NCBI GenBank assembly: GCA_019695265.1
Contig: JAIBAJ010000005.1
Span: 5,052-69,051 of the forward strand
Length of the DNA: 64,000 bases
Reading direction: 5' to 3'
Source: Bacteroidia bacterium
GTDB taxonomy: Bacteria > Bacteroidota > Bacteroidia > JAIBAJ01
Each line of letters begins with the position of its first letter. Positions within the stretch are counted from its first letter, which is position 1. The notes under the pieces are model-generated. The model made no database searches and was not told the DNA's origin. It was given only the letters and a program-made list of their open reading frames with translations. Position numbers and translations under genes: made by a program. Shown here in pieces: positions 323-23,961 of this stretch.

Positions 323-871
323 TTATAGGATGCTAATTTTCCTAATTCCTCCAATCTTACCGATAATAGCCGAACCCAAAAAGACATCTTGAGGTGAAAA
401 AATTTTATGACAAACCAAGGGGTAAAATCTAACGATATTATGAATCTCCAATTTGAAACCGGATTGAATTTTTCCGCCCACCGATTCAAGAACCAAAAAA
501 TGGCCATTTTTCAAATTTTGCAAGAGTAGGGACTTGGATGAAGGGAACTCAAGGATGAATTTTTGACCTTCTTTAAGGTCTTCCAAGTCAAGGAATGAGA
601 TTTCATCAGGACTATTGTTCGGCCCTTGCTCCTGGTAACAAAACTCATCCCATGACGGGTAACCCAAAAGCCGAGAAAGCTGATCAAGCGTGTACAGATG
701 TGGTCTGGCAGAAGGTGAACTAAAGCCAAAAAGGCGTTTAAGAGTGCTTGAACTAATATTACAATTATAATTCTCCCTTAAATCTTTTGAGAGAAAATCA
801 CAATCTTTAGGATACCGCAAAGGGTACCCAACTCGGGATTCAATAAGTTTTTTAAGTTTTTCAATAATCAT
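323..871 (-). CDS. Small conserved protein with an HTH-like motif, function unknown. It is a paralog of 14682-15263 and is read divergently from the signalling operon.
   Basis: 182-aa ORF. About 60-65% identical to the 193-aa ORF at 14682-15263, sharing RYPKDCE..SKDLRE.YNCNISSSTLKRLFGFS.PSA.PHLYTLD..S..LGY.SWD.FC. The NISSSTLKRLFG stretch resembles an AraC-type HTH recognition helix. No signal peptide. Confidence 0.55.
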   Translation of the reverse strand: MIIEKLKKLIESRVGYPLRYPKDCDFLSKDLRENYNCNISSSTLKRLFGFSSPSARPHLYTLDQLSRLLGYPSWDEFCYQEQGPNNSPDEISFLDLEDLKEGQKFILEFPSSKSLLLQNLKNGHFLVLESVGGKIQSGFKLEIHNIVRFYPLVCHKIFSPQDVFLGSAIIGKIGGIRKISIL

Positions 872-1127
872 GGCAGGAGGCGAACATATTATAAAAAAAA
901 AATTGAATGCTAACAGCTAAAAAAAGAATTTTTTGAATTTTTTGCCTGTGCCTACAAGACTGATTTTAAACTCTCTTTGCTTAAAAATAATACTCGATAA
1001 AGGTATTACTTTATTTTAAAATTCTTTTTACCGGAAGAAAAACAAAACCGAAAATTGGAAAAACCCTTTACCATTACCATGGTTTAAACAATTTCAAACT
1101 GAAAACAACATAACAACATAATTTTCA

Positions 1128-1745
1128 ATGTATTATGAACAAATGTCGAACATAGAAAATGTTGCCACTCATATCGATGAGCTGCATGCAATTTCGACGA
1201 ATGGTCCGTATTATGATATAATTTCCATATTATATTTAAACCCGAAAGAGCTTCTATTTTCATCAATTAGTTTTGTGGCAGGAGTACTTATTGCCGGCTT
1301 GCTTTTTTTTGTTTTAAACTGGATTTTACAACCCAGTTTAAAAATCCAACGACCATGTGTGGTATTAAAAGAAGGATTATTAGATAAAATAATTGTGCCA
1401 ATTGTAAACAAATCTCTATACTATTCTTTAAAAAATATTAAAATTGAGGGATATATATTATATGAAAATCAAAAATTTGATTTAAAATTAGATAACAATT
1501 TTATTAAATCTATAAAATCATTAAGTACGGATGAATATCAATATATAATAAATGTTGAAGGTATAATTGAATATAAAAACAGGAATAGTGACATATCTAC
1601 ATCACTAAAAGATTATTCATATATAATTAATTCTCCAAACTCAATTTTAAGAATAATAGTATATTGTGAGCATAGTTTAAGTGGTCTTAAACGAATTATT
1701 AAAAAGAATTATCGTAGAATTTTATATAATTATCAGGAAGTTTAA
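1128..1745 (+). CDS. Single-pass membrane protein of unknown function, first gene of the signalling operon (distant paralog of 15402-16142)
   Basis: 205-aa ORF with one hydrophobic helix (LLFSSISFVAGVLIAGLLFFVLNWIL). Its C-terminus IINSPNSILRIIVYCEHSLSGLKRIIKKNYRRILYNYQEV matches LLNSPNTILKIKVIAKHKMSGICLSIEKKYRKIIHNYYEI in the 15402-16142 ORF. Its stop is 2 nt before the kinase start codon. Very AT-rich. Confidence 0.5.
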   Translation: MYYEQMSNIENVATHIDELHAISTNGPYYDIISILYLNPKELLFSSISFVAGVLIAGLLFFVLNWILQPSLKIQRPCVVLKEGLLDKIIVPIVNKSLYYSLKNIKIEGYILYENQKFDLKLDNNFIKSIKSLSTDEYQYIINVEGIIEYKNRNSDISTSLKDYSYIINSPNSILRIIVYCEHSLSGLKRIIKKNYRRILYNYQEV

Positions 1746-1747
1746 TT

Positions 1748-3502
1748 ATGGATTTCCACAAACTATTATTTAGACAATACAAAAAGTATAATTTATCGGA
1801 AAATAACACACCTCCGGATTTTATTTCGGAGGTAAATAAAACCTATAATTCATTTGAAGAAAGAATACGGTTATTAGAAAATATTCTGGAGGTTAATCAA
1901 AAGGAGTTACTGAGAACGAACTCAGAATTAAAACGAGTACTGCTTGAACAAGAGCTCGAAATTGACAGGAACATCCATGAAATAAGAACTTCAAGGAATA
2001 ACCTGGAAGAATCAAAAACTCAATTGCTAGCTGTTTTTTCAGCCATTGATTCCGTTGTAATATCAACCAATGAAAGTGGAATTATAAAATTCGTAAGTCC
2101 TTCAATTAAAAAGCAGTTCGGACTGGAAATTCATCAAGTTGTAGGCCTAGACATTACTTCATTAGCAAGAAGAATTGGGTTAGCAATTAATCCATTTGAA
2201 ACACTAAAAAATGATCAAAGTCTCGAATTTACTTCAGAAAGTGGTGAAAAGCATTTCCAATTACGCTTAAATACCGATAATCCGGAAAGTAAAAACCTGG
2301 TTTACTCCATCATGGACATTACAAGTGACAAAAACTTACGCTTACAAGTTGAAGGGCAAAAGGAATTCTATGAAAGTATACTGGAGAATATACCGGCTGA
2401 TGTTGCACTATTTACAAAGGACCATCGGTATATTTATTTGAACTCTAAAGCCGTTAAGAATCCCGAATTAAGGCAATTAATAATTGGAAAAACGGATTTT
2501 GAATACTTTCAGGCTACAAATCGCAGCGTTGAGAAAGCCATTGAAAGAGAAGCAATTTTTCAGGAGGCCATACAAAAGAGAAGCTATGTTGAATTTGATG
2601 ACCGACTGGTAGATGCAAATGGGAAACAAAAGACACTAAAACGTCGCTTTACCCCTTTCTTAAAACCGGAATATCAGGAAGATTATGTGATGGGGTTCGG
2701 TATTGACGTTACAGAATTGTATGAGATACAAGCCCATTTGAAGGAAAATGAACAAAAAATAAAAGAACTGAACAACAGTTTGGAACAAAAGGTTATTGAA
2801 AGGACCCGGGAATTGCAGATTGCCAATAAGGAAATGGAATCCTTTTCCTATTCCGTTTCACATGACTTAAAATCACCACTTCGGGCTATTCAGGGGTATG
2901 CCAACATTTTAAATGAAGAATACAAACAATTCATTGATACAGAAGGGCACCGCTTTTTGGAAGAAGTAATAAAAAATGCGGATCGAATGACCCATTTAAT
3001 TGATTCTCTTTTGTCCTTTTCACGATTAGGTAAAAAAGAAGTACATAAGGTAATTTTCAGTTTAGACGAATTGGTAAGTTCAATGGTGGAGGAGGAAAAG
3101 CCATTTCCCAACCCAAATTCAGTTTTACAAATTGAACCCTTAGGAAATGCTTATGCAGACCCGGATTTATTGAGACAGGTATTGACAAATTTGATCAGCA
3201 ATGCATTAAAATATTCATCCAAGAAAGAAAAACCAACAGTCGAAATCAAGAGCATTGCGAATGGCGATGAACTTGAAGTTATTGTAAAAGACAATGGGGC
3301 CGGTTTCAATATGGATTATTACGATAAATTATTCGGTGTATTTCAACGCCTGCACTCCGACAAAGAGTTTCAAGGCACAGGTGTTGGACTGGCACTTACC
3401 CAAAAAATTATTACCAAACACGGAGGAAGAATCTGGGCAACATCCGAGCCCGGAAATGGCGCCGTATTTCATTTTACACTACCTCAAAAACAACAACAAT
3501 GA
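1748..3502 (+). CDS. Soluble sensor histidine kinase with coiled-coil, PAS, HisKA and HATPase_c domains
   Basis: 584 aa with no TM segment. H-box SHDLKSPLRAIQGY, N-box NLISNALKYS, G-boxes DNGAGF and GTGVGLAL. PAS-like segments in the N-terminal half. Overlaps the next gene by 4 nt (ATGA). Confidence 0.85.
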   Translation: MDFHKLLFRQYKKYNLSENNTPPDFISEVNKTYNSFEERIRLLENILEVNQKELLRTNSELKRVLLEQELEIDRNIHEIRTSRNNLEESKTQLLAVFSAIDSVVISTNESGIIKFVSPSIKKQFGLEIHQVVGLDITSLARRIGLAINPFETLKNDQSLEFTSESGEKHFQLRLNTDNPESKNLVYSIMDITSDKNLRLQVEGQKEFYESILENIPADVALFTKDHRYIYLNSKAVKNPELRQLIIGKTDFEYFQATNRSVEKAIEREAIFQEAIQKRSYVEFDDRLVDANGKQKTLKRRFTPFLKPEYQEDYVMGFGIDVTELYEIQAHLKENEQKIKELNNSLEQKVIERTRELQIANKEMESFSYSVSHDLKSPLRAIQGYANILNEEYKQFIDTEGHRFLEEVIKNADRMTHLIDSLLSFSRLGKKEVHKVIFSLDELVSSMVEEEKPFPNPNSVLQIEPLGNAYADPDLLRQVLTNLISNALKYSSKKEKPTVEIKSIANGDELEVIVKDNGAGFNMDYYDKLFGVFQRLHSDKEFQGTGVGLALTQKIITKHGGRIWATSEPGNGAVFHFTLPQKQQQ

Positions 3503-3945
3503 ATCAAATTGAAACCATAGATATTCTGCTAGTAGAAGATAATTTTAATGATGCAGAACTGGCACTAAGAGTTTTGAAAAAAAACTTTCCATCCAGAAAA
3601 TTAGTTCACCTAGAAGATGGTGAACAAGTGCTTGATTATTTTAATCTTAGACAGAATCAACCAAATACCTACCACCATTCCATACTACCGAAAGTAATTT
3701 TACTTGATTTAAAGATGCCCAAAATCGATGGACTTCAGGTTTTGGAAATCCTTAAAAAAGATAATGAATTAAAGAAAATTCCAATTGTTGTATTAACCTC
3801 ATCCAAAGAAGACCCGGACCTCAAACGCTGCTATGAACTTGGTGTTAACTCCTATATTGTTAAACCCGTTGAATTTAAAGAATTTATGCAAATTATTTCT
3901 CAAATAGGCGTGTATTGGGTAAACTATAACCAAAAGCCAAATTAA
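3499..3945 (+). CDS. Stand-alone CheY-like response regulator receiver domain
   Basis: 148 aa. ILLVEDNFNDAE ... ILLDLKMPKIDGL ... IVVLTSSKE ... YIVKP is a typical REC fold signature with no output domain. Confidence 0.85.
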   Translation: MNQIETIDILLVEDNFNDAELALRVLKKNFPSRKLVHLEDGEQVLDYFNLRQNQPNTYHHSILPKVILLDLKMPKIDGLQVLEILKKDNELKKIPIVVLTSSKEDPDLKRCYELGVNSYIVKPVEFKEFMQIISQIGVYWVNYNQKPN

Positions 3946-3950
3946 GAATT

Positions 3951-5933
3951 ATGAAGGTATTGCATATTGAAGATAACGAATCTGATTCCTTTTTCATAAA
4001 ACGTTTGCTCGCTGTACACTTTAGTGATTTGGATTACAAACTTGTTGAAGACCTGGATGAATTTAAAACAAGTCTTAATGATTTCCAACCCGATGTTGTT
4101 ATTTCCGATCATAAATTAAAGGGATTTACCTCCAAAGAAGTTTATGTTGCTTTTAAAGACAGCTGGCAAAAATGTCCATTTATACTGGTTACCAATGCTA
4201 TATCGGAGGAGTTTGCGGTAGAAACCTTGCGTAACGGAGTAGACGATTATATTCTAAAGGACCGTTTGGAACGTTTACCAAAATCCATTGAAAATCTATT
4301 AGCAAAATACCAATGGGTTGCAGAAAAAGATGAATATATCAAGCAAATTATTGAAAGTGAAATTCGGTACAAGGATTTACTTCATTCTACTTCGGAGTTA
4401 ATTCACAGTGCCGATGAAAATGGCAATATTCTATTTGTGAACGAAAGTTGGAAACGAGTATTAGGCTATACATTAAGGGAGGTGTTAGCAAAGAACATCT
4501 TTGACTTTCTTGAAAACAACTCGAAAATTTCTTGCCTTAGCAAATTTCAGCGCATCATGAAGGGGGAAAAGGTCGAAAATATGAGATTAAAGATGATTTC
4601 CAAGGATGGATCGGTGAAAATTTTGGAAGGAATGGGAGTGCCACGCTTGCTTGGAAATAACGTTATTGGATCCCATGCATTTTTTAAAGACGTCACCGAA
4701 AAAGAAAATATTCAGTCTGAACTGGAAAAAAGTGAAAAGCGCTATGCCCTGGCCATTGATGCAACTGCCGATGGAATAATTGATTTCAATATCAAGGAAA
4801 ATAGTTTTTACTTGTCGGTTCATAGTTTTGACATATTAAATCAAAACAACAGACAAATCTCACTTTCGAATTTGTCAGAAATTATTCCGCCTTCCTTTTA
4901 CCAATGGATTAAAGGTCTTTTGGAATCCGATAATAATTTACAAAAAAAATTAAGTTTCGATCAGGATATACAATTAAACATAAATTCGGACAAATGGATT
5001 AACATCAAAGCCGGATTTAACCCTTCAGACTTTCGAATAAATGGCTCTATAAGGGACATTACGGACAAAAAAATTCAGGAAATCGAAATTCAAAACCTGA
5101 ATAAAGAACTTGAACAAAAGGTTGAAATAAGAACCTTGGAATTAAAATCCGCCATTAAGTTATTAACCCATAAAAACAAGGAAATTCAGGATAGTATTGT
5201 TTATGCAAAACGAATCCACAATGCCTTATTAACCATTCCGGTAGACTTTAGTGAACTATTTCCTAATTCATTTATAATCAACCAGCCTAAAGAGCTTATT
5301 GGTGGGGATTTTGCTTGGTATCAACAATTAGATGATTGTAAATTTGTTGCTGCAGTAGATTGCACCGGACATGGTGTTCCCGGTGCCTTATTGTCGGTTG
5401 TGGCCACCATTCTTTTGGATGAAGCTGTAATTAAACAAAAAATTATCAACCCGTCCGAGATTCTGGGCTTTGTTAACAATCGACTAAACATCCTATTCAG
5501 AAACTCAGCCGAAGTTATTTCGGATGGTATGGATATTGCCCTCTGTACTATCTGTGAAAAGGAAAATCTGGTGCTATTTTCTGGTGCTCAAAGACCCATT
5601 TATCAGGAATCGAACGGGGTTATTACCAAGCGATTAGGAGATAAAATTTCGTTGGGCCAAACTGAAACACAAAAATCATTTGCAGTGCAGGAAATAAAGT
5701 ATTTGCCCGGTGATATGTTGTATTTGTTTTCAGATGGAATAACCAGTCAGTTTGGTGGTCCGGAAGGCAAAAAAATCAGGAGGCAACAGTTTATGGAAGA
5801 GCTGGAAAGTATTTCAGGCAAACCAAACAAGCAAGAATTAATAACGGATTTTTTTGAGAAATGGAAAGGCGATATGGAACAAACTGATGATGTGCTCATT
5901 CTGGGTATAAAACTTAACAAAGCGGTAATATGA
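3951..5933 (+). CDS. Response-regulator receiver, PAS and PP2C-type (SpoIIE/RsbU-like) serine phosphatase fusion
   Basis: 660 aa. N-terminal REC (MKVLHIEDNESD ... DVVISDHKL ... FILVTN). Central PAS and coiled-coil region. C-terminal PP2C signature GGDFAW..AAVDCTGHGVPGALLSVV, DGMDIAL, LFSDG and DDVLILGIK. About 65% identical to the 17045-19021 ORF. Confidence 0.85.
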   Translation: MKVLHIEDNESDSFFIKRLLAVHFSDLDYKLVEDLDEFKTSLNDFQPDVVISDHKLKGFTSKEVYVAFKDSWQKCPFILVTNAISEEFAVETLRNGVDDYILKDRLERLPKSIENLLAKYQWVAEKDEYIKQIIESEIRYKDLLHSTSELIHSADENGNILFVNESWKRVLGYTLREVLAKNIFDFLENNSKISCLSKFQRIMKGEKVENMRLKMISKDGSVKILEGMGVPRLLGNNVIGSHAFFKDVTEKENIQSELEKSEKRYALAIDATADGIIDFNIKENSFYLSVHSFDILNQNNRQISLSNLSEIIPPSFYQWIKGLLESDNNLQKKLSFDQDIQLNINSDKWINIKAGFNPSDFRINGSIRDITDKKIQEIEIQNLNKELEQKVEIRTLELKSAIKLLTHKNKEIQDSIVYAKRIHNALLTIPVDFSELFPNSFIINQPKELIGGDFAWYQQLDDCKFVAAVDCTGHGVPGALLSVVATILLDEAVIKQKIINPSEILGFVNNRLNILFRNSAEVISDGMDIALCTICEKENLVLFSGAQRPIYQESNGVITKRLGDKISLGQTETQKSFAVQEIKYLPGDMLYLFSDGITSQFGGPEGKKIRRQQFMEELESISGKPNKQELITDFFEKWKGDMEQTDDVLILGIKLNKAVI

Positions 5934-6537: not shown

Positions 6538-6628
6538 CCAATGATATTTGAAATAGTCCAAAACCTATTTTGAAAATTATCGTAGTAAACGCCTATGCAA
6601 AAGCTGTTTAGGCCAATTATTGCCATGT
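6538..6628 (+). repeat. Repeat S copy 1 (about 90 nt, roughly 75% identical to 45718-45812, same orientation)
   Basis: CCAATGATATTTGAAATAGTCCAAAACCTATTTTGAAAATTATCGTAGTAAACGCCTATGCAAAAGCTGTTTAGGCCAATTATTGCCATG against CCAATGTTATTTGAAAAATATTCCAAGAACTAGTTTGAAAATTACAGTGGTAAATGCCGATGCAATAGCTGTTTGGCAGTTTTGGCATGCAT. Confidence 0.6.
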
Positions 6629-6750
6629 AAAATTGGACAATTAAAGATAAAACAAACATTTTCGCATCTTTACCACATGAACCTTTTAACGCTGCTATTC
6701 CAACTTGATTTATCCCAATCCATTGAGGAAAATTAGGAATACCTGGTGTT

Positions 6751-6925
6751 GCGGAGATTTCAATTGCTGCGAAAGCTATTAGAAAGCACCATGCTAATTA
6801 CCTGCACCGCCACGTATAGCTTGCACCCGGGTTAGGGATTGCAGTGGAAATCCTTTTTGTCGAGGTTACGAGCAAAAAGATTGGAACGGAAAGCCCGACC
6901 CGTTAGGGGAACCCCCAAAAAAAAC
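6751..6925 (+). repeat. Repeat R2 copy 1 (about 175 nt), near-identical inverted copy at 45950-46128
   Basis: The reverse complement of 6751-6925 matches 45950-46128 at about 95% identity (..CTTTCGCAGCAATTGAAATCTCCG at one end, GGGGTTCCCCTAACGGGTCGGGCTTTCCGTTCC at the other). The internal block TTGCACCCGGGTTAGGGATTGC resembles the R1 5' block TTGCACCCCGGGCAACGATTGAGG. Confidence 0.75.
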
Positions 6926-7170
6926 AGGATTAAACCTTATTCGGAAATAAGATAAACAGCCAAACTAGCAGATTTTGAAACTTAAACCAAGAGTATATAA
7001 ACGATATACCTCTACCCTTACTGATTAGTGGCTTTTAGGGTGCATCATGGCACCTGTTCCATTGGTTATGCTACTTGTTCACCTTTATTCCATTTCCAAT
7101 TCATAAATCCCATTCGTTACCCGTTAGAAATAACCGATTGAAACAGGGTTTAAAGTATATTCGCACGGCA

Positions 7171-9711: not shown

Positions 9712-11103
9712 TTAATCAAATTTACGCTTTTTGAACCAAAGGTCATTGATGGTAACATTCAAATACACCTTGGCAAAACGTTCTCTTATGCCTAATTGGT
9801 TCATGCTACCTCGTTCTGAAAGGTCCAATCCAATGTTTAGGATGGAAGGAGGAATGGTTTTAAAAGGTGGTTTTAGTCGAATACCTAAGCCTAAGGTTAC
9901 TCCATATTGTGCCACACTGATTCCATTAACCATGGTATTGTTAAAAGAATAATAAGCTCCAATACGGTAGGAAGTCGCATATAAAAGGACTTTACCTAAA
10001 TTGGGATCATTGTATTTGGAAATGTCCGGTGTATATTCAGCACCAAAAGAATACCGGGTATAATCGCGTAAGTTGCCTTGGTAACTGGATGATACTTTGG
10101 ACCAGCTTTGAGTATAATAATCAAAGGCAAATTGGTATTTTCCTTTGTTTACAAAACTAATACCGCCACCATAAGCCATCGGCAATTCGATGCTGGATTT
10201 GTTATTGCGTTCGTATAGGATGGTATCTCTTACCACTTCCAATTGGTCGGAGGTGAGTCGGTAATTGAAAAGGTAATGGGTGTGAGCATTGTTAAGTCTG
10301 GAAGCTAGTTCAAAAATTCCACCCAGTTTGATGGAGGTATTCGTTCCTACCGGAATTTCACCCAAAATCCCTCCTTTAAACTGAAATCCGGTGAAATTAT
10401 CCAGCACCTGATTGGTTATTTTAAGAAGCGACGAATCTAAATTAGGAATAAAGACCTGGTTTCGATCTAAATCACCCCAAATGTAAGAGGCACTTACTCC
10501 GATGGAAATACATTTCCAAGGTCGAACTCCAAAAGAAAGGAAAGCTGAATTTCCGCCTCCGGTTCCTTTAAATACGGTGGTGTCTTTCGAAGTGGTATCT
10601 GAAGTAACTATGTTATATCCTACCCTGCTCAAAGCCTTGTAACCAAATGCCATTCCCATCACATTGCTGGGTGTGTTATTCAATCGTTTTTTAGAGATTA
10701 GATTAAAACCTATAGCAAAATAGTCCAAATTAGCTTGAAACTGGGTATTGGATGCCGAAGGATTAGCAATATTATACCACTTAAAACTGGTACCCAAATC
10801 AATGGCAGAATGCATGTAACCGATGGAAGACAAGGCAGCCGGGTTTGCAAAATTAATGGAACGGTTAGGTTCAGCACCATCGTTGTTTTGACTGAGTGTT
10901 GTTCCACCCATACCTATGTTCCTAGCTTGTCCCGGATAATCAATTTCTCCAATTCCATACCTGGTAAGTGGAGATAAGCTTCCATTCTGGGCCATAATAT
11001 TTCCACTACTCAAAAGCATGAATACGGCCAACCACAAATAGGGTTGAACATTAAAGCTTATTGAAGTTGGATGTTTAGGCAATTCCTTGTTTATTTCCTG
11101 CAT
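9712..11103 (-). CDS. Outer-membrane beta-barrel protein (FadL/OmpP1-like?), unknown function
   Basis: 463 aa with a signal-like segment LWLAVFMLLSSGNIMAQ. Rich in G, Y, N and S with alternating hydrophobic beta-strand patterns, and ends ..FKKRKFD. Family assignment is tentative. Confidence 0.45.
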   Translation of the reverse strand: MQEINKELPKHPTSISFNVQPYLWLAVFMLLSSGNIMAQNGSLSPLTRYGIGEIDYPGQARNIGMGGTTLSQNNDGAEPNRSINFANPAALSSIGYMHSAIDLGTSFKWYNIANPSASNTQFQANLDYFAIGFNLISKKRLNNTPSNVMGMAFGYKALSRVGYNIVTSDTTSKDTTVFKGTGGGNSAFLSFGVRPWKCISIGVSASYIWGDLDRNQVFIPNLDSSLLKITNQVLDNFTGFQFKGGILGEIPVGTNTSIKLGGIFELASRLNNAHTHYLFNYRLTSDQLEVVRDTILYERNNKSSIELPMAYGGGISFVNKGKYQFAFDYYTQSWSKVSSSYQGNLRDYTRYSFGAEYTPDISKYNDPNLGKVLLYATSYRIGAYYSFNNTMVNGISVAQYGVTLGLGIRLKPPFKTIPPSILNIGLDLSERGSMNQLGIRERFAKVYLNVTINDLWFKKRKFD

Positions 11104-14681: not shown

Positions 14682-15263
14682 TTAAATGCCTTGAGGAACA
14701 AAATCCTCTCTAAGAATATTTATCCTCTTAATCCCTCCCACTTTACCAATAACAGTTGACCCTAGCGGAGTTCCTTCAGGACAGAAAATTTTATGACAAA
14801 CCAAAGGAAAACATTTTACAATGTTTTTAATCTCTAACGTGAATCCTGCTTTAATTTTAGCACTTATAATGGATTCCAAAACCAAAAAAGTACTATTGTT
14901 TAGGTATTCCAAAAGAAGCTTTTTCTCAGGTAAAAATTCAAGGATTAACTTTTGACCTTCCCTTAGTTCATTCAAATTGAGAAAGCAAATTTCATTCGGA
15001 TTGCAACTTCCAACCTCCTGACCTTCTTGGCAAAAGTTATCCCATGAGGTATAACCCAAAACATTAGATAGAAGATCCAAAGTATAAAGATGCGGTTTGG
15101 CTGAGGGAGTGCTAAATCCAAAAAGACGTTTAAGGGTACTGGAACTTATATTACAGTTGTATCCCTCCCTTAAATCCTTGGAAATAGTTTCGCAGTCCTT
15201 TGGATACCGTATGGTGTATCCCAATTTCAGTTCAATGTTTTTTTTAAGCCTTTTGATGTTCAT
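14682..15263 (-). CDS. Small conserved HTH-like protein (paralog of 323-871)
   Basis: 193 aa. Shares the RYPKDCE..SKDLRE.YNCNISSSTLKRLFGFS and LVLES....K..F.LEI.NIV..FPLVCHKIF blocks with the 323-871 ORF. Confidence 0.55.
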   Translation of the reverse strand: MNIKRLKKNIELKLGYTIRYPKDCETISKDLREGYNCNISSSTLKRLFGFSTPSAKPHLYTLDLLSNVLGYTSWDNFCQEGQEVGSCNPNEICFLNLNELREGQKLILEFLPEKKLLLEYLNNSTFLVLESIISAKIKAGFTLEIKNIVKCFPLVCHKIFCPEGTPLGSTVIGKVGGIKRINILREDFVPQGI

Positions 15264-15392
15264 GGTAGAAGGCGATTTTAGTATATTTTTTTGTTGTTTA
15301 TAATTTAACGACCTAAAAGAACTTTATGACCTTTTTGATTTTTTTGATAGATTGATAGAAAAAGAAAATAGAATCTCTTTGTACCAAATCCG

Positions 15393-15399
15393 GGGGGGC
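15393..15399. other. G7 homopolymer tract 3 nt upstream of the start codon at 15402
   Basis: CCGGGGGGGCAAATG. A simple-sequence tract at a translation start is a candidate slipped-strand switch. Confidence 0.3.
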
Positions 15400-15401
15400 A
15401 A

Positions 15402-16142
15402 ATGTGTAATATTTTCAACCAAAATACTCAAATTATCGACCAACTATCATTTTGCCATATTCCACTTGACAGTATTGGTCTTAAATTAAATTTTTTGCAT
15501 GGTCAAAAAGAGTTAGTGTCATTTTTACACTTAGTTCAATCCAACAAAGCTCTCTCCGAGGGTCAAAATCAACAAAAAAATATAATTAAAGAGTTTGTTA
15601 TCAATCACTTAAACTCAATTAGCGACTTTTCATTACTGGACTCCGGGCTTATTTCATCGGAGATCTTACCCTTTCTTTTAGTGGGCTCTCCTCTTTTACT
15701 TTTTCTATTATTATTATTAAAATTTAGACCAAAAATTTTAATTCAAAAACCTTACCTCGTTTTAGGAGAAAGTTCAATTGACCACCTATGCATTTCCATA
15801 GTAAACCTTTCCAAACAGCAAGATTCAATTGGCATAAAAACCGAAGCTGAAATAATCAATGATAATATTACCTATCGCCTAATCCTTGAAGAAGATGGAA
15901 TGGAGATACAATCTATGAGGAAAAGAAAAGTTGGAATTTTAAACATGATTGTCCGAAAAATTGATTTTGCACCAATTGATTTAAGGCCTAAACCCGTTTA
16001 CCTAAAAGACCTATCTCTATTACTAAATTCTCCAAATACCATTTTAAAAATCAAAGTTATAGCAAAACACAAAATGTCAGGTATATGTCTATCAATTGAA
16101 AAAAAATATAGAAAAATAATTCACAATTACTACGAAATATAA
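15402..16142 (+). CDS. Single-pass membrane protein (distant paralog of 1128-1745)
   Basis: 246 aa. TM helix ILPFLLVGSPLLLFLLLLLKF. Conserved C-terminal domain shared with the 1128-1745 ORF. Confidence 0.45.
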   Translation: MCNIFNQNTQIIDQLSFCHIPLDSIGLKLNFLHGQKELVSFLHLVQSNKALSEGQNQQKNIIKEFVINHLNSISDFSLLDSGLISSEILPFLLVGSPLLLFLLLLLKFRPKILIQKPYLVLGESSIDHLCISIVNLSKQQDSIGIKTEAEIINDNITYRLILEEDGMEIQSMRKRKVGILNMIVRKIDFAPIDLRPKPVYLKDLSLLLNSPNTILKIKVIAKHKMSGICLSIEKKYRKIIHNYYEI

Positions 16143-16465
16143 AATACAAATAATTTTAATTATAGTTTAATATTTAATATAAATCATCAAATATAAATCA
16201 ATTAACAAAACAAATTAATAAGAGAATAAATCCATATACCCAAACCTTCATAATAAGCTGTAAAAAATAAATAACCCAATGCCAAGTTAGGCAAAACCAA
16301 CTAAAAATCCTTAACTTCCTATAACCTATGCAAAAACATCATTCTACTTAAATCCCCGTGACCTTAAACCCAGAATAATTCACCAAATAACCTTATAACC
16401 TAGTAATTTCCATTAACATGCTTTTTGCTAAATAATCAGCACCGCTGTTACATAACGCTCTCCAT

Positions 16466-16990
16466 ATGGCTCAAATGATAGAATCGTTATTACACCTTTC
16501 AAAACTAGAAATAGGTAGGCTTAATATAAAATTGGTCGATTTGCATCAGTTGGCACTTCAGGTTTTAGAAGAAAACAAACCTTATCCCAATCCAAATTTG
16601 CATTGCACAATAGATAGTTTGCCACCAATTAATACAGATCCAATCTTACTGCATCATGTTCTATTTAAGCTGATAGAAAACGCAATAAAATTCTCTTCCA
16701 AAAGAGAATATCCAAAAATTAAAATTTCAAGTTTTCTTTCAAGCGCTGAAATACGAATTTCAATCAAAGACAATGGTGTTGGATTTGATATGGCTGAATA
16801 TGATAAACTCTTTGGCACTTTCAAACGACTTCAATCCGGTAACGAATATCAAGGAGATGGCTTAGGACTCGTCTATTGCAAAAATGCCATTTCCAAATTG
16901 GGAGGTCGAATATGGGCTCAATCAATACTAGAAGAAGGTTCTGAATTTTCTTTCACTTTACCATACTCCTGCATACCTTCCAGTAATTAA
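16466..16990 (+). pseudogene. 5'-truncated remnant of the PAS histidine kinase, retaining the HATPase_c domain only
   Basis: The 174-aa ORF aligns (about 45% identity) only to residues ~415-584 of the 1748-3502 kinase (MTHLIDSLLSFSRLGK.. against MAQMIESLLHLSKLEIGR..). The H-box and PAS region are absent. An in-frame stop lies 9 nt upstream, and 320 bp of very AT-rich non-coding DNA replaces the 5' part. Confidence 0.6.
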
Positions 16991-17044
16991 AAATAAATAA
17001 TTCAAACAACACTAAACCAATATAAATTTTTACGTTATCTAAAT

Positions 17045-19021
17045 ATGAGGATTTTACATATCGAAGACGATGCCAGCGACGCCCTTTTCATTCAAAGAAA
17101 ACTCGCAAGTACATATACTCATTTAGAATACCTTCGAGTACAATCATTAGAAGAACTCAAAACTTCAATCCCATCTTTTGAACCAGACGTAATACTATCC
17201 GACCATCAATTAAATGGCTTTACCTCTAAAGAAATTTTTCAAATTTTCAAAGACTCTTGGCACAATTGCCCTTTTATACTAATTACAGATACCGTTTCAG
17301 AAGACTTCGCTGCCGAAGCACTAAGAAATGGGATAGATGACTATATTGTAAAAAATCGTATTGACCGTTTACCAAAAGTTATTGATACTTTACTTCTTAA
17401 AAACCAACTCTTAAAAGAGAGAGATGAATACATCAATCAAATTATTGAAAGCGAAACCAGATACCGCGACTTATTGTATTCAACCACCGAACTAATCCAT
17501 AGCGCTGATTTACAAGGTAACCTGAATTTTGTAAACCAATCATGGAAACGCTTTCTTGGATACTCCAGTTCCGAAGTCATCAACCGAAACATCTTCGAAT
17601 TTATTGCAGATTCTTCCAAAAGATCCTGCGAAATCAAATTCCAACGATTAATGAAAGGCGAAAAAGTGGAAGATATGAAACTAGAAATGATTGCCAAAGA
17701 CGGCCAATTGAGAAAAATGGAAGGATTAGCCGTCCCTCGTTACATTGGGAATTATCTTATTGGATCTCATGCCTTTTTAAAGGATATTACCGAAAAAGAA
17801 GAAATCCAAAGCAAACTTATTGAAAGCGAAAAACGATACGCACTTGCAATTGCTGCAACTTCAGATGGTATCATTGACCTTAATATTAAAAACAAACAAT
17901 TTTACCTTTCAAACCATTGCTTTGAAATACTTGATCTAGCTCCCCAACCCATCTCAATCTCTAACCTTCATTCCATCGTACCTTCCGGGTTCTATCTCTG
18001 GGTGAAAAACCTGGTAAAAAACAATGGAAAAAAATTGAAAAATTCACTTTTCGATCAAGATATTGAAATTTTCTCCAACCCATCAAAATGGGTAAATATT
18101 AAAGCAATCTTCAACCATAAAGATTGCCGAATTAATGGCTCAATCCGGAATATTACCGAAAAAAAAATCCAAGAAATAAAAATTCAAAACTTTAATAAAA
18201 ATCTGGAAATTCGGGTAGATCTTAAAACTAAAGAGCTTAAAAAGGCTATATCTTTACTAACCAGCCGCAATAAAGAAATACAAGACAGTATTCATTACGC
18301 AAAAAGAATTCACGATGCCTTAACTTCCCATCCCAGAAACTTGGATGAAATATTTCCAAATTCCTTTATTCTTAACCTCCCCAAAGATGTAATTGGCGGC
18401 GACTTTGCTTGGTTTCAACAGGTGGGCAATACCAAGTTTATTGCAGCAGCCGATTGCACAGGCCATGGTGTTCCTGGTGCCTTGCTTTCGGTGGTTGCAA
18501 CCATTCTTCTTGATGAGGCAGTTCTTAAACAAGAAATAAACAATCCTTCCAAAATCCTTGAATTCGTAAATAAACGCCTTTTAAACCTACTTAATAACAC
18601 TGAAGATCTATTGTCGGATGGCCTTGACATCGCCCTTTGTGCAATCAATCCCAATTGCAGGAAAATCCTATTCTCAGGAGCAAATCGACCCATTTATTTC
18701 AAAACCAACAACCAAATTACAGTCCTTCATGGCGATAAAATATCGCTTGGCGAACCCGAAAAAAACCATGTATTTTCACTTCAAACTATTTCTTACATGC
18801 CTAATGACCAGCTCTTTATGCATTCAGATGGAATTACCAGTCAATTTGGAGGAAAATTCGGAAAAAAATTAAAACGACAACACTTACTGAACGAATTAGA
18901 ATTTGATATGCCGATGCCTCAGAAATACCGTTTTATTCGTGAACTATTTGATGAATGGAAAGGTGACTTGGAACAAACTGACGATGTGTTGGTAATCGGT
19001 ATCACTTTGCCTTCAACTTAG
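17045..19021 (+). CDS. REC, PAS and PP2C (SpoIIE-type) phosphatase response regulator (paralog of 3951-5933)
   Basis: 658 aa. REC N-terminus (MRILHIEDDASD ... DVILSDHQL). PP2C motifs GGDFAWFQQ..AAADCTGHGVPGALLSVV, DGLDIALC, MHSDG and DDVLVIGI. Confidence 0.85.
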   Translation: MRILHIEDDASDALFIQRKLASTYTHLEYLRVQSLEELKTSIPSFEPDVILSDHQLNGFTSKEIFQIFKDSWHNCPFILITDTVSEDFAAEALRNGIDDYIVKNRIDRLPKVIDTLLLKNQLLKERDEYINQIIESETRYRDLLYSTTELIHSADLQGNLNFVNQSWKRFLGYSSSEVINRNIFEFIADSSKRSCEIKFQRLMKGEKVEDMKLEMIAKDGQLRKMEGLAVPRYIGNYLIGSHAFLKDITEKEEIQSKLIESEKRYALAIAATSDGIIDLNIKNKQFYLSNHCFEILDLAPQPISISNLHSIVPSGFYLWVKNLVKNNGKKLKNSLFDQDIEIFSNPSKWVNIKAIFNHKDCRINGSIRNITEKKIQEIKIQNFNKNLEIRVDLKTKELKKAISLLTSRNKEIQDSIHYAKRIHDALTSHPRNLDEIFPNSFILNLPKDVIGGDFAWFQQVGNTKFIAAADCTGHGVPGALLSVVATILLDEAVLKQEINNPSKILEFVNKRLLNLLNNTEDLLSDGLDIALCAINPNCRKILFSGANRPIYFKTNNQITVLHGDKISLGEPEKNHVFSLQTISYMPNDQLFMHSDGITSQFGGKFGKKLKRQHLLNELEFDMPMPQKYRFIRELFDEWKGDLEQTDDVLVIGITLPST

Positions 19022-19560: not shown

Positions 19561-22500
19561 ATGCAACGATTTGGAAAATCCTTCTTGCCCATTGGCCTAT
19601 TCGTTTTGGCAGTGGCACTTATTCTGGCTTTAAATGCCAATTCTATCTTTAATCCAACTTCCATTCGACACCTGTTTCCGGCAGTTGAAAATGAATTGAT
19701 TCGAACCTTGAGGGAAAAACTCAATCGTTTGAATCAAACTCATCCGGAAGACCGCCTTTACCTGCAAACAGATAAAACATTTTATAGTCCGGGCGAAACC
19801 ATCTGGTTCTCCGCCTTCCTTCGAAAAGGATCCGACTTTAGTGCTTCCGATAAAAGTGAAGTGATCCACCTTGAATTTTTAAACCCTGCAGGTGCAGTAG
19901 CAAAAAAACTGGATCTTATTGCTATCAACGGCCAAAGCCGTGGCGATTTGCTTATTGAAGAAGAACTACCCGGCGGCATCTATACCCTCAAAGCTTTTTC
20001 CAATTGGATGAAAAACGACTCCTCTTTTTTCGAAAAGAAAATTACGGTTCAGGAATTGGTTCTTCCTCGACTCAAAATGAAACTAGATTTCGAACGAGAA
20101 GGATTTGCCCCCGGCGAAGAAGTAGTTGCTAAACTTATCCTTGAATCCAACGAAAATAAAGCCCTGTCTAATCACTCCTTCCGGTTTAGCGTTTCGCTCG
20201 GTGGCAAAGAATTCATGAACAACCTATCCTCTACCGGAAACAATGGGGAAATGTTCATTCGCTTTCATTTGCCCGCTAAACTAAAAACCGGAGATGGTTT
20301 GCTCCTAGTCTCCCTCGACTACGAAGGCCAATCAGAAAGCATTAGCCGAAGCATACCTATTGTCCTGAACCAAGTAAAACTGGAACTATTTCCAGAAGGT
20401 GGTGACCTTATCCAAAACCTCGAAAGCCGTGTGGCCTTCCGGGCCAGAAACCATCGAGGAAAACCCACCGATATTAAAGGTAGGGTGGTTGACCAAAACG
20501 GTAAGGAAATCACCTCTTTCACCAGTTTTGCCAAAGGTTTGGGACATTTTAACCTTATTCCTGAACCCGGTAGAACTTATTTTGCCCAAATTACCTCGCC
20601 GGCATGCGATGACCGGGTAGAATTGCCTTCCGCTTTGTCTCAAGGTTTTGTTTTAAAAACCGGGGAGGCCCAAAACCTGGATCTTCCTATCCAAATCCTA
20701 AGTACCATTCCAACCAAAGCATCCCTCGTGGCTACCGTAAGAGGAAAAATATATTGGGCAACTGAAGTAGCTCTTGCCTCCGGAAACAACCAGGTTATCA
20801 TGCCCCTTGATCAATTCCCGATGGGGGTTGCTCAAATAACCTTGTTCGATGCAAATGGAATTGAACGTTGTGAACGCCTGGCCTTTGTTAACCGCGACAA
20901 ACAGCTTCGCCTGCATATACAAACCGATAAGGAAAAATACCTCCCCCGTGAAAAAGTGAAAATGACCATCTCCACTACCGACGCTAGTGGACTACCGGTT
21001 GCCTCCCAACTGGGTATATCGGTGGTAAACGACCAATTGCTCGCTTTCGCCGACGACAAACAACAGCATTTGCTGGCATCACTCTGCCTTCAATATGATA
21101 TTAAAGAACCCATTGAAGAGCCTAATTTCTTCTTCGATACCAAAGAATCAAAAAGCCTTCGTGCCTTGGATTACCTCCTTCTAACCAGCGGTTGGAGGCG
21201 ATTCTCGTGGAAAGAAATTAGAACTGAAACAGTTCCTCAATTTGGGTTTGAAGGGGAAAAAGCAGAAATCTATGGTAAAATCTTGGATGCTTATACCGGT
21301 AAACCCATTCAGGCCGCCTTTGTAAAACTGGTAGGAACTAAAACCACTACCCGAAGCGATGAAAATGGAACCTTCCGAATCAAAAAAGCCGATATCTCCT
21401 CCTTTAACCAGCTTGAAATACGAATGACTGATTACCAGGTGCTTACTGCAAACCTTACCCATCTGAACGACCAGGGTGTTTTGTACCTGAACTCAAATCG
21501 CCCTGTTGCTTTAATTAAAATGGTTGAAGCATGTGCTAATGTACCTATGGCTTTGGTAAAGCAGGATGAAGTAGATGCAGGTTTTGCAGATTTTAACTGG
21601 GATGTGGTAGAGGAAAAGCAATTAGCCAAAGTTCCAAATAAAGAAAGACAACCCGCCAGGGCTAAACCAGCACCTAAAAGAGCACAAGCCGATTCAATAA
21701 TTTTCCGAAAAGGGGATGCTCTGGCCAAAAATAAAGCTAAAAAGGAATTTCAAAACGAGGATATGAAGGACATGGGAAAATGGTTCTTACCGCAAGAGGA
21801 GCCACCTATTCCTCAACAACCGGAATCCCACTTTGTCAGGGCCCGCCAATTCCCGGTTTCCAAACCCGAACCGCTTCAACCATCCGATGTAAGAACCGAT
21901 TTCCGTTCCACCCTTTTCTTCGATGGTATGCTTGAAACCGACCGAAGCGGCAAAAAAACAATCGAATTCTATACCTCCGATGAAATCACTTCCTTCCGGA
22001 TTACCGCCGAAGGTATCGGCGAAAACGGATTGCCCGGACGAACCGAACAAACCTTATTCACCCAGCTACCTCTCAGCATTTCAGCCAAAATCCCCACTAG
22101 CTGCATCCTGGGCGATGTGGTAGCTATCCCGGTTACCATTAAAAACAATTCCAACACCGGCTTGTCAGGCAAACTCAGCATTTCTGCACCCAAAGGCTTT
22201 AACATAAAGCATGAACCGGCCCTGACGCAAACCCTTGACGCAAACCAAGCCAAAACAATTTACCTTAACTACGAAGTAAGCGGCACCGCACAAACCGATA
22301 GCATCCGAATCTCCTTCCACTCTGCCTCCCATAGCGACCAACTTTGCCAAGCCATAAAAACCGAAGCCAAAGGTTTCCCAATGAGCTTAGCTTTCTCCGG
22401 CAAACAACTGGAAGCTGAACACGAGTTCGCCCTCTCCAACATCGTTTCGGGTAGCTTGCAAGTAAACCTCACCGCCTTCCCTTCCGTTGTTTCTGACCTG

Positions 22501-23961
22501 ATGAAAGGGGTGGAAAGCATCCTCAACGAACCTTCCGGATGCTTCGAACAAACCAGTATGAGCAGCTACCCCAATGCCATGGTGCTCGATTACCTGAAAA
22601 CCATTGATTCCCACGACGAAAAAATCCTTCAACGTGCAAACCAATTGCTCGACCAAGGCTATAAACGCCTCATCAGCTTCGAAACCAAACAAAAAGGCTA
22701 CGAATGGTTTGGCTCCTCTCCCGGCCACGAAGCCCTTACCGCTTACGGACTTATGCAATTTAACGACATGAAAAATGTGTATGCCTCGGTCGATAACAGC
22801 ATGGTTGACCGTACTGCAAATTGGCTCCTGGCTAAACGCAACGGTAAAGGTGGTTTTATGCGCAATGCCCAGGCACTCGATCAATTTGGCGCCGCAGACC
22901 AGGATATTACCGACGCCTACATCGTGTACGCCCTGTCCGAAGCAGGCTTCGCCAACCAACTAAAACTCGAATACCAAAAAAATGTAGAACATGCCATCAC
23001 CTCCAAAGACCCTTACCTCATGGGTATGATGACCATGGCTGCCGTACAATCCAACGACCGTACCAATGCCGATAAACTCGCTAAATTGCTTGTTAACTCC
23101 CAGGAAAAAGACGGTAGCTGGAATGCAAAAAAACACAGCATCACCCGTAGCGGCGGATTAGGCCTGCGCATCGAAACTACTTCCCTAGCAATCATGGCAC
23201 TTCTCGCCTACGACCAAGGCTTCAACGGCGAAATAAACAAAGCCGTGGAGTTTCTTATCAATAACCGAAATGCCTACGGTGGTTACGGAAGCAGCCAGGC
23301 AACCATACTTTCTCTAAAAGCGCTTACCCAATACGCCAAATTCAATAAAAAAGCCGGCGAAGACGGTACCATCGAACTCTTTGCCGACGGCCGCAAAATC
23401 GCCGAACAAGCCTATACCAAAAATACCAAAGATCCTATCCAATTCAAAAATCTGGAAAAGGAAATTAAACAAGGTAAAACCAAGTTTAAAATCAAGTACA
23501 AAGGTGTAAAAAATGCCTTGCCATATTCTCTCGCAATTACCTACCACTCCTCGCTTCCGGCCAGTAGCGACCAATGTGTTATCGGTATCGAAACATCCCT
23601 CGATGCCAAACAAATTTCCATGGGGCAAACCTGTCGTATGCACATCGAGTTGAGTAATCTTACCAACCAGGGTCAACCCAGTACCATGGCTATTATTGGT
23701 CTGCCAGCCGGTTTGTCGGCTCAACCCTGGCAATTAAAAGAGCTGATGGAAAAGCAAAGCTTCGACTACTATGAAATAAAAGGAAATAAGCTGTTTTTAT
23801 ACTATCGCCAAATGAAACCTAACGAGTCAAAATCCTTTAACCTAGACCTAAAAACCGAATTTCCCGGCACATTTTTGGCCCCGGCTTCCTCGGCGTATTT
23901 GTACTACACACCCGAGTTCAAATGCTGGAAAGCCCTAACTCCCATCACCATCATTCAATAG
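19561..23961 (+). CDS. Bacterial alpha-2-macroglobulin family protein (large, N-terminally anchored)
   Basis: 1466 aa. N-terminal signal or anchor (LPIGLFVLAVALILALNA). SGCFEQTSMSSYPNAMVLDYL resembles the thioester region CxEQ (E. coli YfhM has CLEQ). MG-domain-like repeats. GC is about 48%, higher than the flanks. Confidence 0.8.
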   Translation: MQRFGKSFLPIGLFVLAVALILALNANSIFNPTSIRHLFPAVENELIRTLREKLNRLNQTHPEDRLYLQTDKTFYSPGETIWFSAFLRKGSDFSASDKSEVIHLEFLNPAGAVAKKLDLIAINGQSRGDLLIEEELPGGIYTLKAFSNWMKNDSSFFEKKITVQELVLPRLKMKLDFEREGFAPGEEVVAKLILESNENKALSNHSFRFSVSLGGKEFMNNLSSTGNNGEMFIRFHLPAKLKTGDGLLLVSLDYEGQSESISRSIPIVLNQVKLELFPEGGDLIQNLESRVAFRARNHRGKPTDIKGRVVDQNGKEITSFTSFAKGLGHFNLIPEPGRTYFAQITSPACDDRVELPSALSQGFVLKTGEAQNLDLPIQILSTIPTKASLVATVRGKIYWATEVALASGNNQVIMPLDQFPMGVAQITLFDANGIERCERLAFVNRDKQLRLHIQTDKEKYLPREKVKMTISTTDASGLPVASQLGISVVNDQLLAFADDKQQHLLASLCLQYDIKEPIEEPNFFFDTKESKSLRALDYLLLTSGWRRFSWKEIRTETVPQFGFEGEKAEIYGKILDAYTGKPIQAAFVKLVGTKTTTRSDENGTFRIKKADISSFNQLEIRMTDYQVLTANLTHLNDQGVLYLNSNRPVALIKMVEACANVPMALVKQDEVDAGFADFNWDVVEEKQLAKVPNKERQPARAKPAPKRAQADSIIFRKGDALAKNKAKKEFQNEDMKDMGKWFLPQEEPPIPQQPESHFVRARQFPVSKPEPLQPSDVRTDFRSTLFFDGMLETDRSGKKTIEFYTSDEITSFRITAEGIGENGLPGRTEQTLFTQLPLSISAKIPTSCILGDVVAIPVTIKNNSNTGLSGKLSISAPKGFNIKHEPALTQTLDANQAKTIYLNYEVSGTAQTDSIRISFHSASHSDQLCQAIKTEAKGFPMSLAFSGKQLEAEHEFALSNIVSGSLQVNLTAFPSVVSDLMKGVESILNEPSGCFEQTSMSSYPNAMVLDYLKTIDSHDEKILQRANQLLDQGYKRLISFETKQKGYEWFGSSPGHEALTAYGLMQFNDMKNVYASVDNSMVDRTANWLLAKRNGKGGFMRNAQALDQFGAADQDITDAYIVYALSEAGFANQLKLEYQKNVEHAITSKDPYLMGMMTMAAVQSNDRTNADKLAKLLVNSQEKDGSWNAKKHSITRSGGLGLRIETTSLAIMALLAYDQGFNGEINKAVEFLINNRNAYGGYGSSQATILSLKALTQYAKFNKKAGEDGTIELFADGRKIAEQAYTKNTKDPIQFKNLEKEIKQGKTKFKIKYKGVKNALPYSLAITYHSSLPASSDQCVIGIETSLDAKQISMGQTCRMHIELSNLTNQGQPSTMAIIGLPAGLSAQPWQLKELMEKQSFDYYEIKGNKLFLYYRQMKPNESKSFNLDLKTEFPGTFLAPASSAYLYYTPEFKCWKALTPITIIQ

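Follow-up and report, generated by a model that had tools for sequence, protein, structure and literature searches.

The question raised by this locus is whether five neighbouring genes form one dedicated signalling system, or a two-component pathway of familiar type with two further genes beside it. We analysed the whole 64,000-nt stretch of DNA in which they lie (the window). ORF calling recovered the same five genes that a first-pass annotation had grouped together:

323-871, minus strand: p182 gene, 182 aa, divergent from the operon
1128-1745, plus strand: p205 gene, 205 aa, first gene of the operon
1748-3502, plus strand: kinase gene, 584 aa (Pfam, hydropathy, motif positions)
3499-3945, plus strand: free REC gene, 148 aa (Pfam REC, PDB matches, residues)
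3951-5933, plus strand: REC-PAS-PP2C gene, 660 aa (Pfam, NCBIfam, PDB, residues)

Spacing on the plus strand is as tight as had been reported, with 2 nt between p205 and the kinase (TAA-tt-ATG), a 4-nt overlap between the kinase and the free REC (ATGA) and 5 nt before the PP2C gene (TAA-gaatt-ATG). HMM searches with the five proteins found Pfam domains in the kinase, the REC and the PP2C protein; p182 and p205 matched nothing in Pfam, NCBIfam, PHROGs or PADLOC. The kinase, free REC and REC-PAS-PP2C genes are a co-transcribed unit in which the phospho-acceptor and catalytic residues are all intact. A scan for sigma-70 promoters and terminators, a method ill-suited to Bacteroidota promoters, gave results no better than those from shuffled sequence.

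The signalling core and its putative phosphatase output

The kinase consists of a coiled coil, two PAS domains, HisKA and HATPase_c, identified in Pfam as PAS, PAS_4, HisKA (4e-14) and HATPase_c (1.2e-28). Judged by its motifs, it is a HisKA-type sensor histidine kinase, with a DHp domain carrying the H-box histidine (SHDLKSP; phospho-acceptor His372) and a HATPase_c domain carrying the N, G1 and G2 boxes at about aa 485, 515 and 543. Its description as soluble is borne out by hydropathy, since the maximum 19-residue Kyte-Doolittle value is 1.17 and there is no TM segment.

The free REC (Pfam REC, 2.9e-18) retains the acidic pocket E13/D14, Asp70, Thr100 and Lys122. Its PDB matches include 5brj (2.7e-36), Rcp1 1i3c (3.7e-22) and 1k68 (4.2e-21), along with bacteriophytochrome regulators, and by this similarity it is a single-domain response regulator of the phytochrome-associated Rcp1/RcpA/RcpB type. 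The likeness to the Cph1-Rcp1 and bacteriophytochrome systems lies in this resemblance to Rcp1, RcpA and RcpB (about 1e-22) and in the overlap of the REC gene with the stop codon of the kinase. In contrast to those systems, the kinase here is PAS-only, and Pfam detects no phytochrome/PHY or GAF domain in it.

In the 660-aa protein, Pfam identified REC (1e-8), PAS (9e-11) and SpoIIE/PP2C (6.3e-17) domains, arranged in the order REC (Asp53), PAS, a second PAS-like region, a helical linker and PP2C/SpoIIE. The metal-binding aspartates D453, D470, D595 and D646/647 of the PP2C domain are present both in this protein and in the paralogue described below. On these features the protein is a SpoIIE/RsbU-type PP2C/PPM response regulator with a putative phosphatase output. 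Its C-terminal 276 aa (aa 380-655) match the NCBIfam SiaA model (NF038263) at 2.7e-46, with a score of 158.4 bits that lies far under the curated cut-off of 700 bits for the SiaA equivalog. The closest solved relative of the PP2C domain is PDB 6k4e (9.8e-31), labelled 'putative serine phosphatase', which we take to be SiaA. When metagenomes were scanned with the PP2C alignment, PAS-level matches alone came back. The REC domain also matches P. aeruginosa RssB weakly (NCBIfam 1.7e-11; PDB 3eq2, 1e-7), as it might in an RssB-like adaptor or scaffold that is not a phosphatase. We consider such a role very improbable: all four SpoIIE/RsbU-type metal-binding Asp motifs are kept in both paralogues, and the phosphatase domain is much nearer to 6k4e.

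In the pathway that we propose, an intracellular cue would lead the cytoplasmic PAS-PAS kinase to autophosphorylate at His372, and the phosphate would pass to two co-translated receivers, Asp70 of the free REC and Asp53 in the REC domain of the PP2C protein, a pairing that we infer. The Rcp1-type free REC could serve as a phosphate sink or adaptor. Phosphorylation of the other REC, tuned by the PAS domains, would presumably be relayed by the helical linker and activate a PP2C dimer. The dimer would then dephosphorylate a phospho-Ser/Thr partner-switching protein, putatively STAS- or SiaC-like and encoded at another genomic site. In the scanned ORFs of the window, all 100 aa or longer, Pfam found no STAS, DUF1987, RsbW/HATPase_c_2, SiaC or sigma-factor domain, in agreement with the first-pass annotation, which had noted no STAS, RsbW or sigma gene in the window.

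By analogy, the core is RsbK/RsbY-like or SiaA-like. As in the RsbK-RsbY system of Bacillus cereus, which activates sigma-B via RsbV/RsbW, a kinase gene lies beside a REC-PP2C gene; there, phosphotransfer from RsbK to RsbY has been described (PMC9912610), followed by phosphatase activation (PMC9912610, PMC4574943). The present system differs in several respects: its kinase is of a soluble PAS type with no fused receiver, PAS domains separate REC from PP2C in the phosphatase, there is an additional Rcp1-type REC, the neighbourhood lacks genes for RsbV, RsbW or a sigma factor, and the phylum is Bacteroidota. The likeness to SiaA (SiaABCD, Pseudomonas aeruginosa) is in the linker and PP2C domain, to which SiaA is closest among NCBIfam models and solved structures. 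However, the window holds no SiaB, SiaC or SiaD gene, and the N-terminus of SiaA is membrane/HAMP, not REC-PAS. With the RsbP/RsbU-type PPM phosphatases, whose common N-terminal regulators include REC and PAS (PMC12143880), the 660-aa protein shares the plan of sensor domain(s), helical or coiled-coil linker and PPM domain. None of the characterised examples, however, unites a REC and two PAS-like domains in one protein that is accompanied by its own kinase and a further REC. The signalling core is one more two-component system with a PP2C output, here in Bacteroidota. To our knowledge, next to no work has been done in this phylum on pathways of this kind or on their substrates.

A decayed second copy and the linkage of the five genes

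A decayed paralogous copy of the cassette at 14682-19021, overlooked by the first-pass annotation, was found by tblastn with its gene order kept:

14682-15263, minus strand: p182 paralogue, 193 aa, 65% identity (tblastn, ORF)
15402-16142, plus strand: p205 paralogue (p246b), 246 aa, TM segment and β-sandwich 33% identical, N-tail longer
16466-16990, plus strand: kinase remnant, 174 aa, end of DHp plus HATPase_c
17045-19021, plus strand: REC-PAS-PP2C paralogue, 658 aa, 60% identity, key residues all kept

The kinase remnant starts within the last DHp helix, is 45% identical to aa 407-579 of the kinase and has intact N, G1 and G2 boxes; its H-box and PAS domains are absent, and the 323 nt upstream are stop-rich in frame translations. 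No free REC gene adjoins the PP2C paralogue. We ruled out an RsbW-type anti-sigma kinase as the identity of this HATPase-only ORF, as its similarity is to the CA domain of the kinase and its only Pfam match is HATPase_c (PF02518, 6e-23). These comparisons indicate an ancient duplication of the entire cassette, with loss of the kinase sensor, the H-box and the free REC from the second copy. As dS between the paralogues is saturated, no date can be put on this event. Both copies have a GC content of 27-38%, compared with 40-50% for the housekeeping genes that separate and flank them.

The 205-aa protein has an acidic N-tail, one TM helix at aa 49-67 (Kyte-Doolittle 2.49), in keeping with its earlier description as single-pass, and a C-terminal β-sandwich of generic Ig-like fold. 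By the positive-inside rule alone, the Ig-like domain probably faces the cytoplasm. Between strains, dN/dS is 0.83, which is almost neutral. Word-index searches of 5.8 billion proteins with p205 and p246b returned near-identical sequences only, a scan of JGI metagenomes with the p205 alignment gave no relatives outside the lineage, and the family was found in three loci only. These results point to a single-pass membrane protein that evolves fast and is confined to this lineage. It may act on the kinase as a tether or modulator, adjacency being the sole ground for this. That adjacency occurs at two paralogous loci only, with the kinase truncated in one, while a third locus ends with its contig.

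The first-pass annotation had likened the genes to a three-component arrangement, with the single-pass p205 feeding the soluble kinase. Extended to one dedicated, co-evolving system in which p182 is the regulator and p205 a membrane sensor, this reading can draw on several observations: the order of divergent p182, p205, kinase and PP2C genes is found two times in the window, with the proteins 33-65% identical, a divergent p182/p205-like pair is also kept at a third locus (L002) up to the end of its contig, the gap between p205 and the kinase is just 2 nt, and the p205 β-sandwich is predicted to lie on the same side of the membrane as the kinase. The two window copies are not independent evidence, however, because they go back to a single duplication. 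Conservation of the linkage had been set beforehand as the check on a dedicated system, and the five genes fail it at the loci compared. At the orthologous locus in one relative (L001), where p182 has 80% identity and the same downstream FIST gene 82-83%, the p205, kinase, REC and PP2C genes are all absent; a transposase gene lies near this locus. At 11 more distant genome loci with p182 relatives, none had a detectable kinase, REC, PP2C or p205 homologue within the fetched flanks of up to 10 kb. The second copy in the window retains p246b although its kinase has lost the sensor and H-box, and the almost neutral evolution of p205 and its confinement to the lineage also count against the proposal. 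A dedicated five-gene system is not supported and is unlikely, and the claimed arrangement is a lineage-specific juxtaposition. We prefer, at a probability of roughly 0.65, the reading in which the core is an ordinary branched two-component pathway of an uncultured Bacteroidia bacterium, p182 and p205 are not dedicated parts of it, and the cassette is anciently duplicated.

p182 and its family

The predicted model of p182 has two domains: five N-terminal helices (aa 1-80) form an HTH-like unit, and the C-terminal part (aa 100-182) is a small β-barrel. The stretch NISSSTLKRLFGF, the best conserved of the p182 family, had been taken for an AraC-like recognition helix. Structure prediction upholds an HTH-like helical domain; the AraC assignment found no support in any test, and AraC/XylS membership (HTH_18/HTH_AraC, MarA/Rob fold) was rejected, the domain resembling XRE/Cro-type folds instead. 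The best structural matches of the N-terminal domain are the XRE/Cro-C1 proteins SinR, ComR, DdrO and HipB. PDB profile searches with alignments of 7 and 76 p182 sequences returned nothing significant, so that neither these nor Pfam gave profile similarity to HTH_3 or HTH_31. An hhalign comparison of the family with five approximate XRE HTH sequences gave an 18-column match at a probability of 1.3%. Because these sequence-level HTH tests gave nothing, p182 is at most XRE-like by predicted fold.

The likeness to the XRE/Cro-C1 regulators extends from the predicted five-helix domain to a variable C-terminal domain and a gene that is usually divergent from its neighbour. The differences are the lack of detectable profile similarity, a longer first HTH helix and a C-terminal small β-barrel that is no known XRE partner domain. 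Helix 2 of the model (aa 21-35) has a length of about 15 residues, more than in canonical XRE domains. Helix length and the failed profile tests would also suit a protein- or RNA-binding adaptor, built from a helical bundle and an Sm/SH3-like barrel and divergently placed by chance, and the best Foldseek hits of the C-terminal domain against the PDB, all non-significant, were Sm/LSm barrels. We regard this adaptor role as rather unlikely. p182 is a probable local one-component transcription regulator.

The family comprises 3174 representatives (clusters at 50% identity), found here in Bacteroidota only, and has no Pfam or NCBIfam model. Other members join the N-terminal domain to Kelch propellers or to a coiled coil. 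By our own ORF calling, at least 10 of 13 non-redundant loci have a divergent upstream neighbour, and these neighbours vary: Por_Secre_tail (T9SS), MORN_2, p205-like or unannotated proteins. Genes of the p182 family probably control whichever gene adjoins them, which here would be the p205-kinase operon. Since the family is large and model-less, with a confidently predicted two-domain fold and consistent divergence beside secreted or envelope genes, it can reasonably be proposed as a candidate new family of local regulators. It is a more useful by-product of this analysis than the signalling core, and neither the operon nor the family overturns current understanding.

The divergent intergenic region contains a conserved block, which is also present in the second copy:

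922-944, plus strand: conserved 23-nt block AAAAGAATTTTTTGAATTTTTTG with 9-nt GAATTTTTT repeats, intergenic, candidate promoter/operator
15315-15337, plus strand: the same block in the second copy, AAAAGAACTTTATGACCTTTTTG

The block is conserved in an equivalent position ahead of the p182 homologues in the second copy, L001, L002 and L003/L004, and L001 retains it though the operon is absent there. By this conservation it is a candidate promoter or operator that moves together with the p182 gene. The number of 9-nt repeats differs among strains, with two copies in some and three in others. It is tempting, if speculative and on balance improbable, to see in the family a Bacteroidota-wide class of one-component regulators, in which an HTH-like N-terminal module with exchangeable C-terminal domains (small β-barrel, Kelch propeller or coiled coil) would control divergent cell-surface, T9SS-cargo or membrane genes, the repeats would act as a phase-variation-like switch, and one member would be wired here to a p205-tethered kinase-PP2C pathway. 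Some of the related contigs come from activated-sludge metagenomes.

The signalling core of copy 1

All five ORFs of copy 1 were recovered at exactly the coordinates proposed in the first-pass annotation, as was its tight spacing, with a TAA-tt-ATG junction at 1745/1748, an ATGA overlap at 3499-3502 and a TAA-gaatt-ATG junction at 3945/3951.

Genes of copy 1, with Pfam domains where found
323-871, minus strand: p182, a 182-aa HTH-like protein
1128-1745, plus strand: p205, a 205-aa single-pass membrane protein
1748-3502, plus strand: kinase of 584 aa (PAS, PAS_4, HisKA, HATPase_c)
3499-3945, plus strand: free REC of 148 aa (REC)
3951-5933, plus strand: phosphatase of 660 aa (REC, PAS, SpoIIE/PP2C)

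In the source record (contig of 72.9 kb, MAG of an uncultured Bacteroidia bacterium, locus tags from K1X82_01650 on), p182 and p205 are both annotated as 'hypothetical' and the other three as 'PAS domain-containing protein', 'response regulator' and 'PAS domain S-box protein'. We found the kinase to be without a TM segment (Kyte-Doolittle maximum 1.17) and p205 to have one clear TM helix (aa 49-67, Kyte-Doolittle value 2.49), in agreement with the earlier description of a soluble kinase encoded next to a single-pass protein. Functional residues were all kept in the kinase (His372 and the N, G1 and G2 boxes, by motif position), the free REC (E13/D14, D70, T100 and K122), the phosphatase REC (E7/D8, D53, T81 and K103) and the PP2C domain (D453, D470, D595 and D646/647). 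At the level of sequence, the operon was shown to encode a soluble PAS kinase, an Rcp1-type REC and a REC-PAS-PP2C protein with complete catalytic residues.

The free REC groups with Rcp1, RcpA and RcpB, single-domain regulators associated with phytochromes (1i3c, 3.7e-22; best match 5brj, 2.7e-36). Pfam, however, detected neither PHY or phytochrome nor GAF domains in the kinase of this operon. The linker and PP2C domain of the phosphatase are closest to PDB 6k4e (9.8e-31) and to the NCBIfam SiaA model, against which the protein scored 158 bits, far under the 700-bit cut-off. N-terminal REC, PAS, GAF or HAMP domains that regulate PPM phosphatases through a dimeric helical linker are common architectures (PMC12143880), and transfer from a kinase to a REC-PP2C protein is established for RsbK/RsbY (PMC9912610, PMC4574943), with HsbR and SiaA as additional precedents (PMC6482189, PMC7647112). 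The operon core is a fresh example of an already known kind of pathway. The original interpretation is partly supported as regards the kinase-REC-PP2C core; the conserved five-gene frame in which this core was placed is not supported.

The absence of a partner-switching substrate set, also remarked on in the first-pass annotation, was borne out when window ORFs of at least 100 aa were scanned for STAS, SiaC/DUF1987, RsbW-type kinase and sigma factor genes. The locus differs in this respect from partner-switching systems, and its substrate must be encoded elsewhere. From knowledge of these families, the kinase would pass phosphate to both receivers, with the single-domain REC acting as a sink or adaptor. 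Phospho-REC and PAS domains would then work through the helical linker (about aa 370-430) to give an active PP2C dimer, and the target to be dephosphorylated would be a STAS- or SiaC-like protein encoded outside the locus.

A third PP2C protein in the window, the TPR-SpoIIE protein at 54854-56719, is unrelated and is 38% identical to the PP2C of the operon over the catalytic domain. The 1.1-kb ORF-free stretch 3' of the copy-1 PP2C gene contains a match to Flavo-1 RNA (RF01705) at 6814-6904 on the plus strand, and another is found at 45971-46060 on the minus strand (61.4 bits each versus a gathering score of 42). Both matches lie within a 175-bp inverted repeat (6752-6926 versus 45949-46122, 97% identical); an additional 113-bp stretch (6538-6648 versus 45718-45827) is 77% identical. 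Five sizeable ORFs of the window (9712-11103, 24714-25703, 30595-32193, 46452-49799 and 56827-57780; 317-1115 aa) had no Pfam match at E <= 0.01.

A second, partly decayed cassette

A tblastn search of the window with the five proteins identified a paralogous cassette at 14682-19021, missed in the first reading, in which the gene order is the same as in copy 1.

Genes of copy 2, with identity to copy 1
p182 paralogue, minus strand: 193 aa, 65% identity
p205 paralogue: 246 aa, 33% identity over the TM and C-terminal part
Kinase remnant: 174-aa ORF, 45% identity to the C-terminal 173 kinase residues
REC-PAS-PP2C paralogue: 658 aa, 60% identity

A free REC gene is missing from this copy. The truncated kinase begins within the last DHp helix. 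It has N, G1 and G2 boxes but neither an H-box nor any PAS domain, and the 323 nt 5' of it are closed in all three frames. The copy-2 PP2C protein has an intact receiver and no cognate kinase; as a speculation, the copy-1 kinase may serve as its phosphate donor. Since dS between the paralogues is saturated, the duplication is old. Housekeeping genes separate the two copies (PagL-like outer-membrane protein, HAD hydrolase, LptC, pantothenate kinase, AdoHcy hydrolase and periplasmic binding protein). The GC content of both cassettes is 27-38% compared with 40-50% in the surroundings, which suggests accessory DNA. Directly after copy 2, at 19561-23961, is the gene for a 1466-aa bacterial alpha-2-macroglobulin-like protein with MG2, A2M, TED and receptor-binding domains.

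Gene linkage and the p182 family

The first-pass annotation treated the five genes as one arrangement and did not recognise it as a known system. The same five genes are present in two near-identical strains, L003 and L004. Locus L002 has a p182 homologue (49-56% identical) and, divergent from it, a gene of the p205 family whose product is 48% identical to the copy-2 protein; the contig stops at this gene. Among the loci that bear on this linkage, the decisive case is L001, in a relative. Its p182 homologue is 80% identical and the FIST-domain gene 3' of it is 82-83% identical to its L003/L004 counterpart, so we regard the locus as orthologous. On the other side of p182 it has no p205, kinase, REC or PP2C gene; the position of the operon is occupied by a DDE transposase gene (L001:1-630) and about 900 nt in which no gene was called (L001:631-1546). 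Nor was a homologue of the kinase, REC, PP2C or p205 detected in 11 further p182-family loci with flanks fetched up to 10 kb (GTDB species representatives, all Bacteroidota, 31-49% identity). A conserved five-gene system is not supported by these loci. The FIST gene follows p182 on the same strand after about 590 nt and lies beyond the left end of the window, as seen in L003 and L004 (L003:7094-7648, L004:5649-6404); its linkage to p182 is kept in L001, that of the operon is not.

A word-index search returned only eight relatives of p182. With an alignment of these eight as the query, a full HMM scan gave 3174 cluster representatives at E <= 1e-3 (1307 at E <= 1e-10), so the family is large; members are mostly 180-190 aa and match end to end. 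No sequence match in Pfam, NCBIfam, PHROG or PDB was obtained, even when 76 members were scanned at E <= 1. The family is unnamed and is a modestly interesting by-product of the operon analysis.

The AlphaFold2 model of p182 is confident (mean pLDDT 84.8, 7-sequence alignment), with five helices at aa 2-79, a disordered linker and a small β-domain of eight strands at aa 104-181. In this model the conserved motif SSTLKRLFGF maps to helix 3, the recognition-helix position. Foldseek returned nothing significant, the best matches being Sm-like barrels that match the C-domain (E about 0.05), and hhalign against five XRE sequences aligned the expected helix-4 region, but at 1.3% probability. Because the support is modest and at the level of fold only, the predicted N-domain is labelled 'HTH-like, closest to XRE' and is not placed in the XRE family itself. 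The HTH-like nature proposed earlier for p182 is partly supported; the AraC type is not.

In three loci of other Bacteroidota, Kelch propellers take the place of the small barrel as the fusion partner of the N-domain (L010:729-1574, L011:4282-5562 and L014:3573-4427; N-domain identity 41-49% over about 75-97 aa), and in one protein a coiled coil does so. By our own ORF calls, at least 10 of the 13 non-redundant loci have a divergent neighbour upstream of p182. The type of neighbour varies: T9SS cargo with Por_Secre_tail in L005, L008 and L012/13, a MORN_2-repeat protein in L007/9 and L015, and other proteins at the remaining loci. A conserved N-module, an exchangeable C-domain and divergent, varied neighbours are the signature of a local one-component regulator, not of a dedicated part of a phosphorelay.

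p205 and the shared intergenic region

Among 5.8 billion proteins and the JGI metagenomes, the only relatives of p205 were sequences almost identical to it, its copy-2 paralogue and the L002 fragment. Comparison of the window with strain L003 gave p205 a dN/dS of 0.83, on a small sample of 13 substitutions, against 0.14 to 0.38 for the other four genes; consistent with this high value, p205 is the most diverged paralogue pair. It is a real gene, but weakly constrained and lineage-restricted. Both paralogues have 3-4 K/R residues clustered directly behind the TM helix and 0-1 in front of it, so that by the positive-inside rule the β-sandwich of p205 would be cytoplasmic. p205 may act on the kinase as a tether or modulator, a role for which the only support is the spacing of 2 nt and the adjacency seen in both copies.

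A 23-nt A/T-rich block with 9-nt repeats precedes the start of p182 by about 50-70 nt in copy 1 (922-944), copy 2 (15315-15337), L002 and L001. L001 keeps it though it has no operon, and we consider the block a candidate operator or promoter belonging to p182, which probably controls transcription from the shared intergenic region. The 9-nt unit GAATTTTTT occurs twice in the window (927-944) and three times in L003 (c. 5886-5917), a strain in which the five proteins share 96-99% identity with those of the window; this difference in repeat number may be a switch in the promoter or operator. At the equivalent place in the block, L001 has GACTTTTTT-type repeats.
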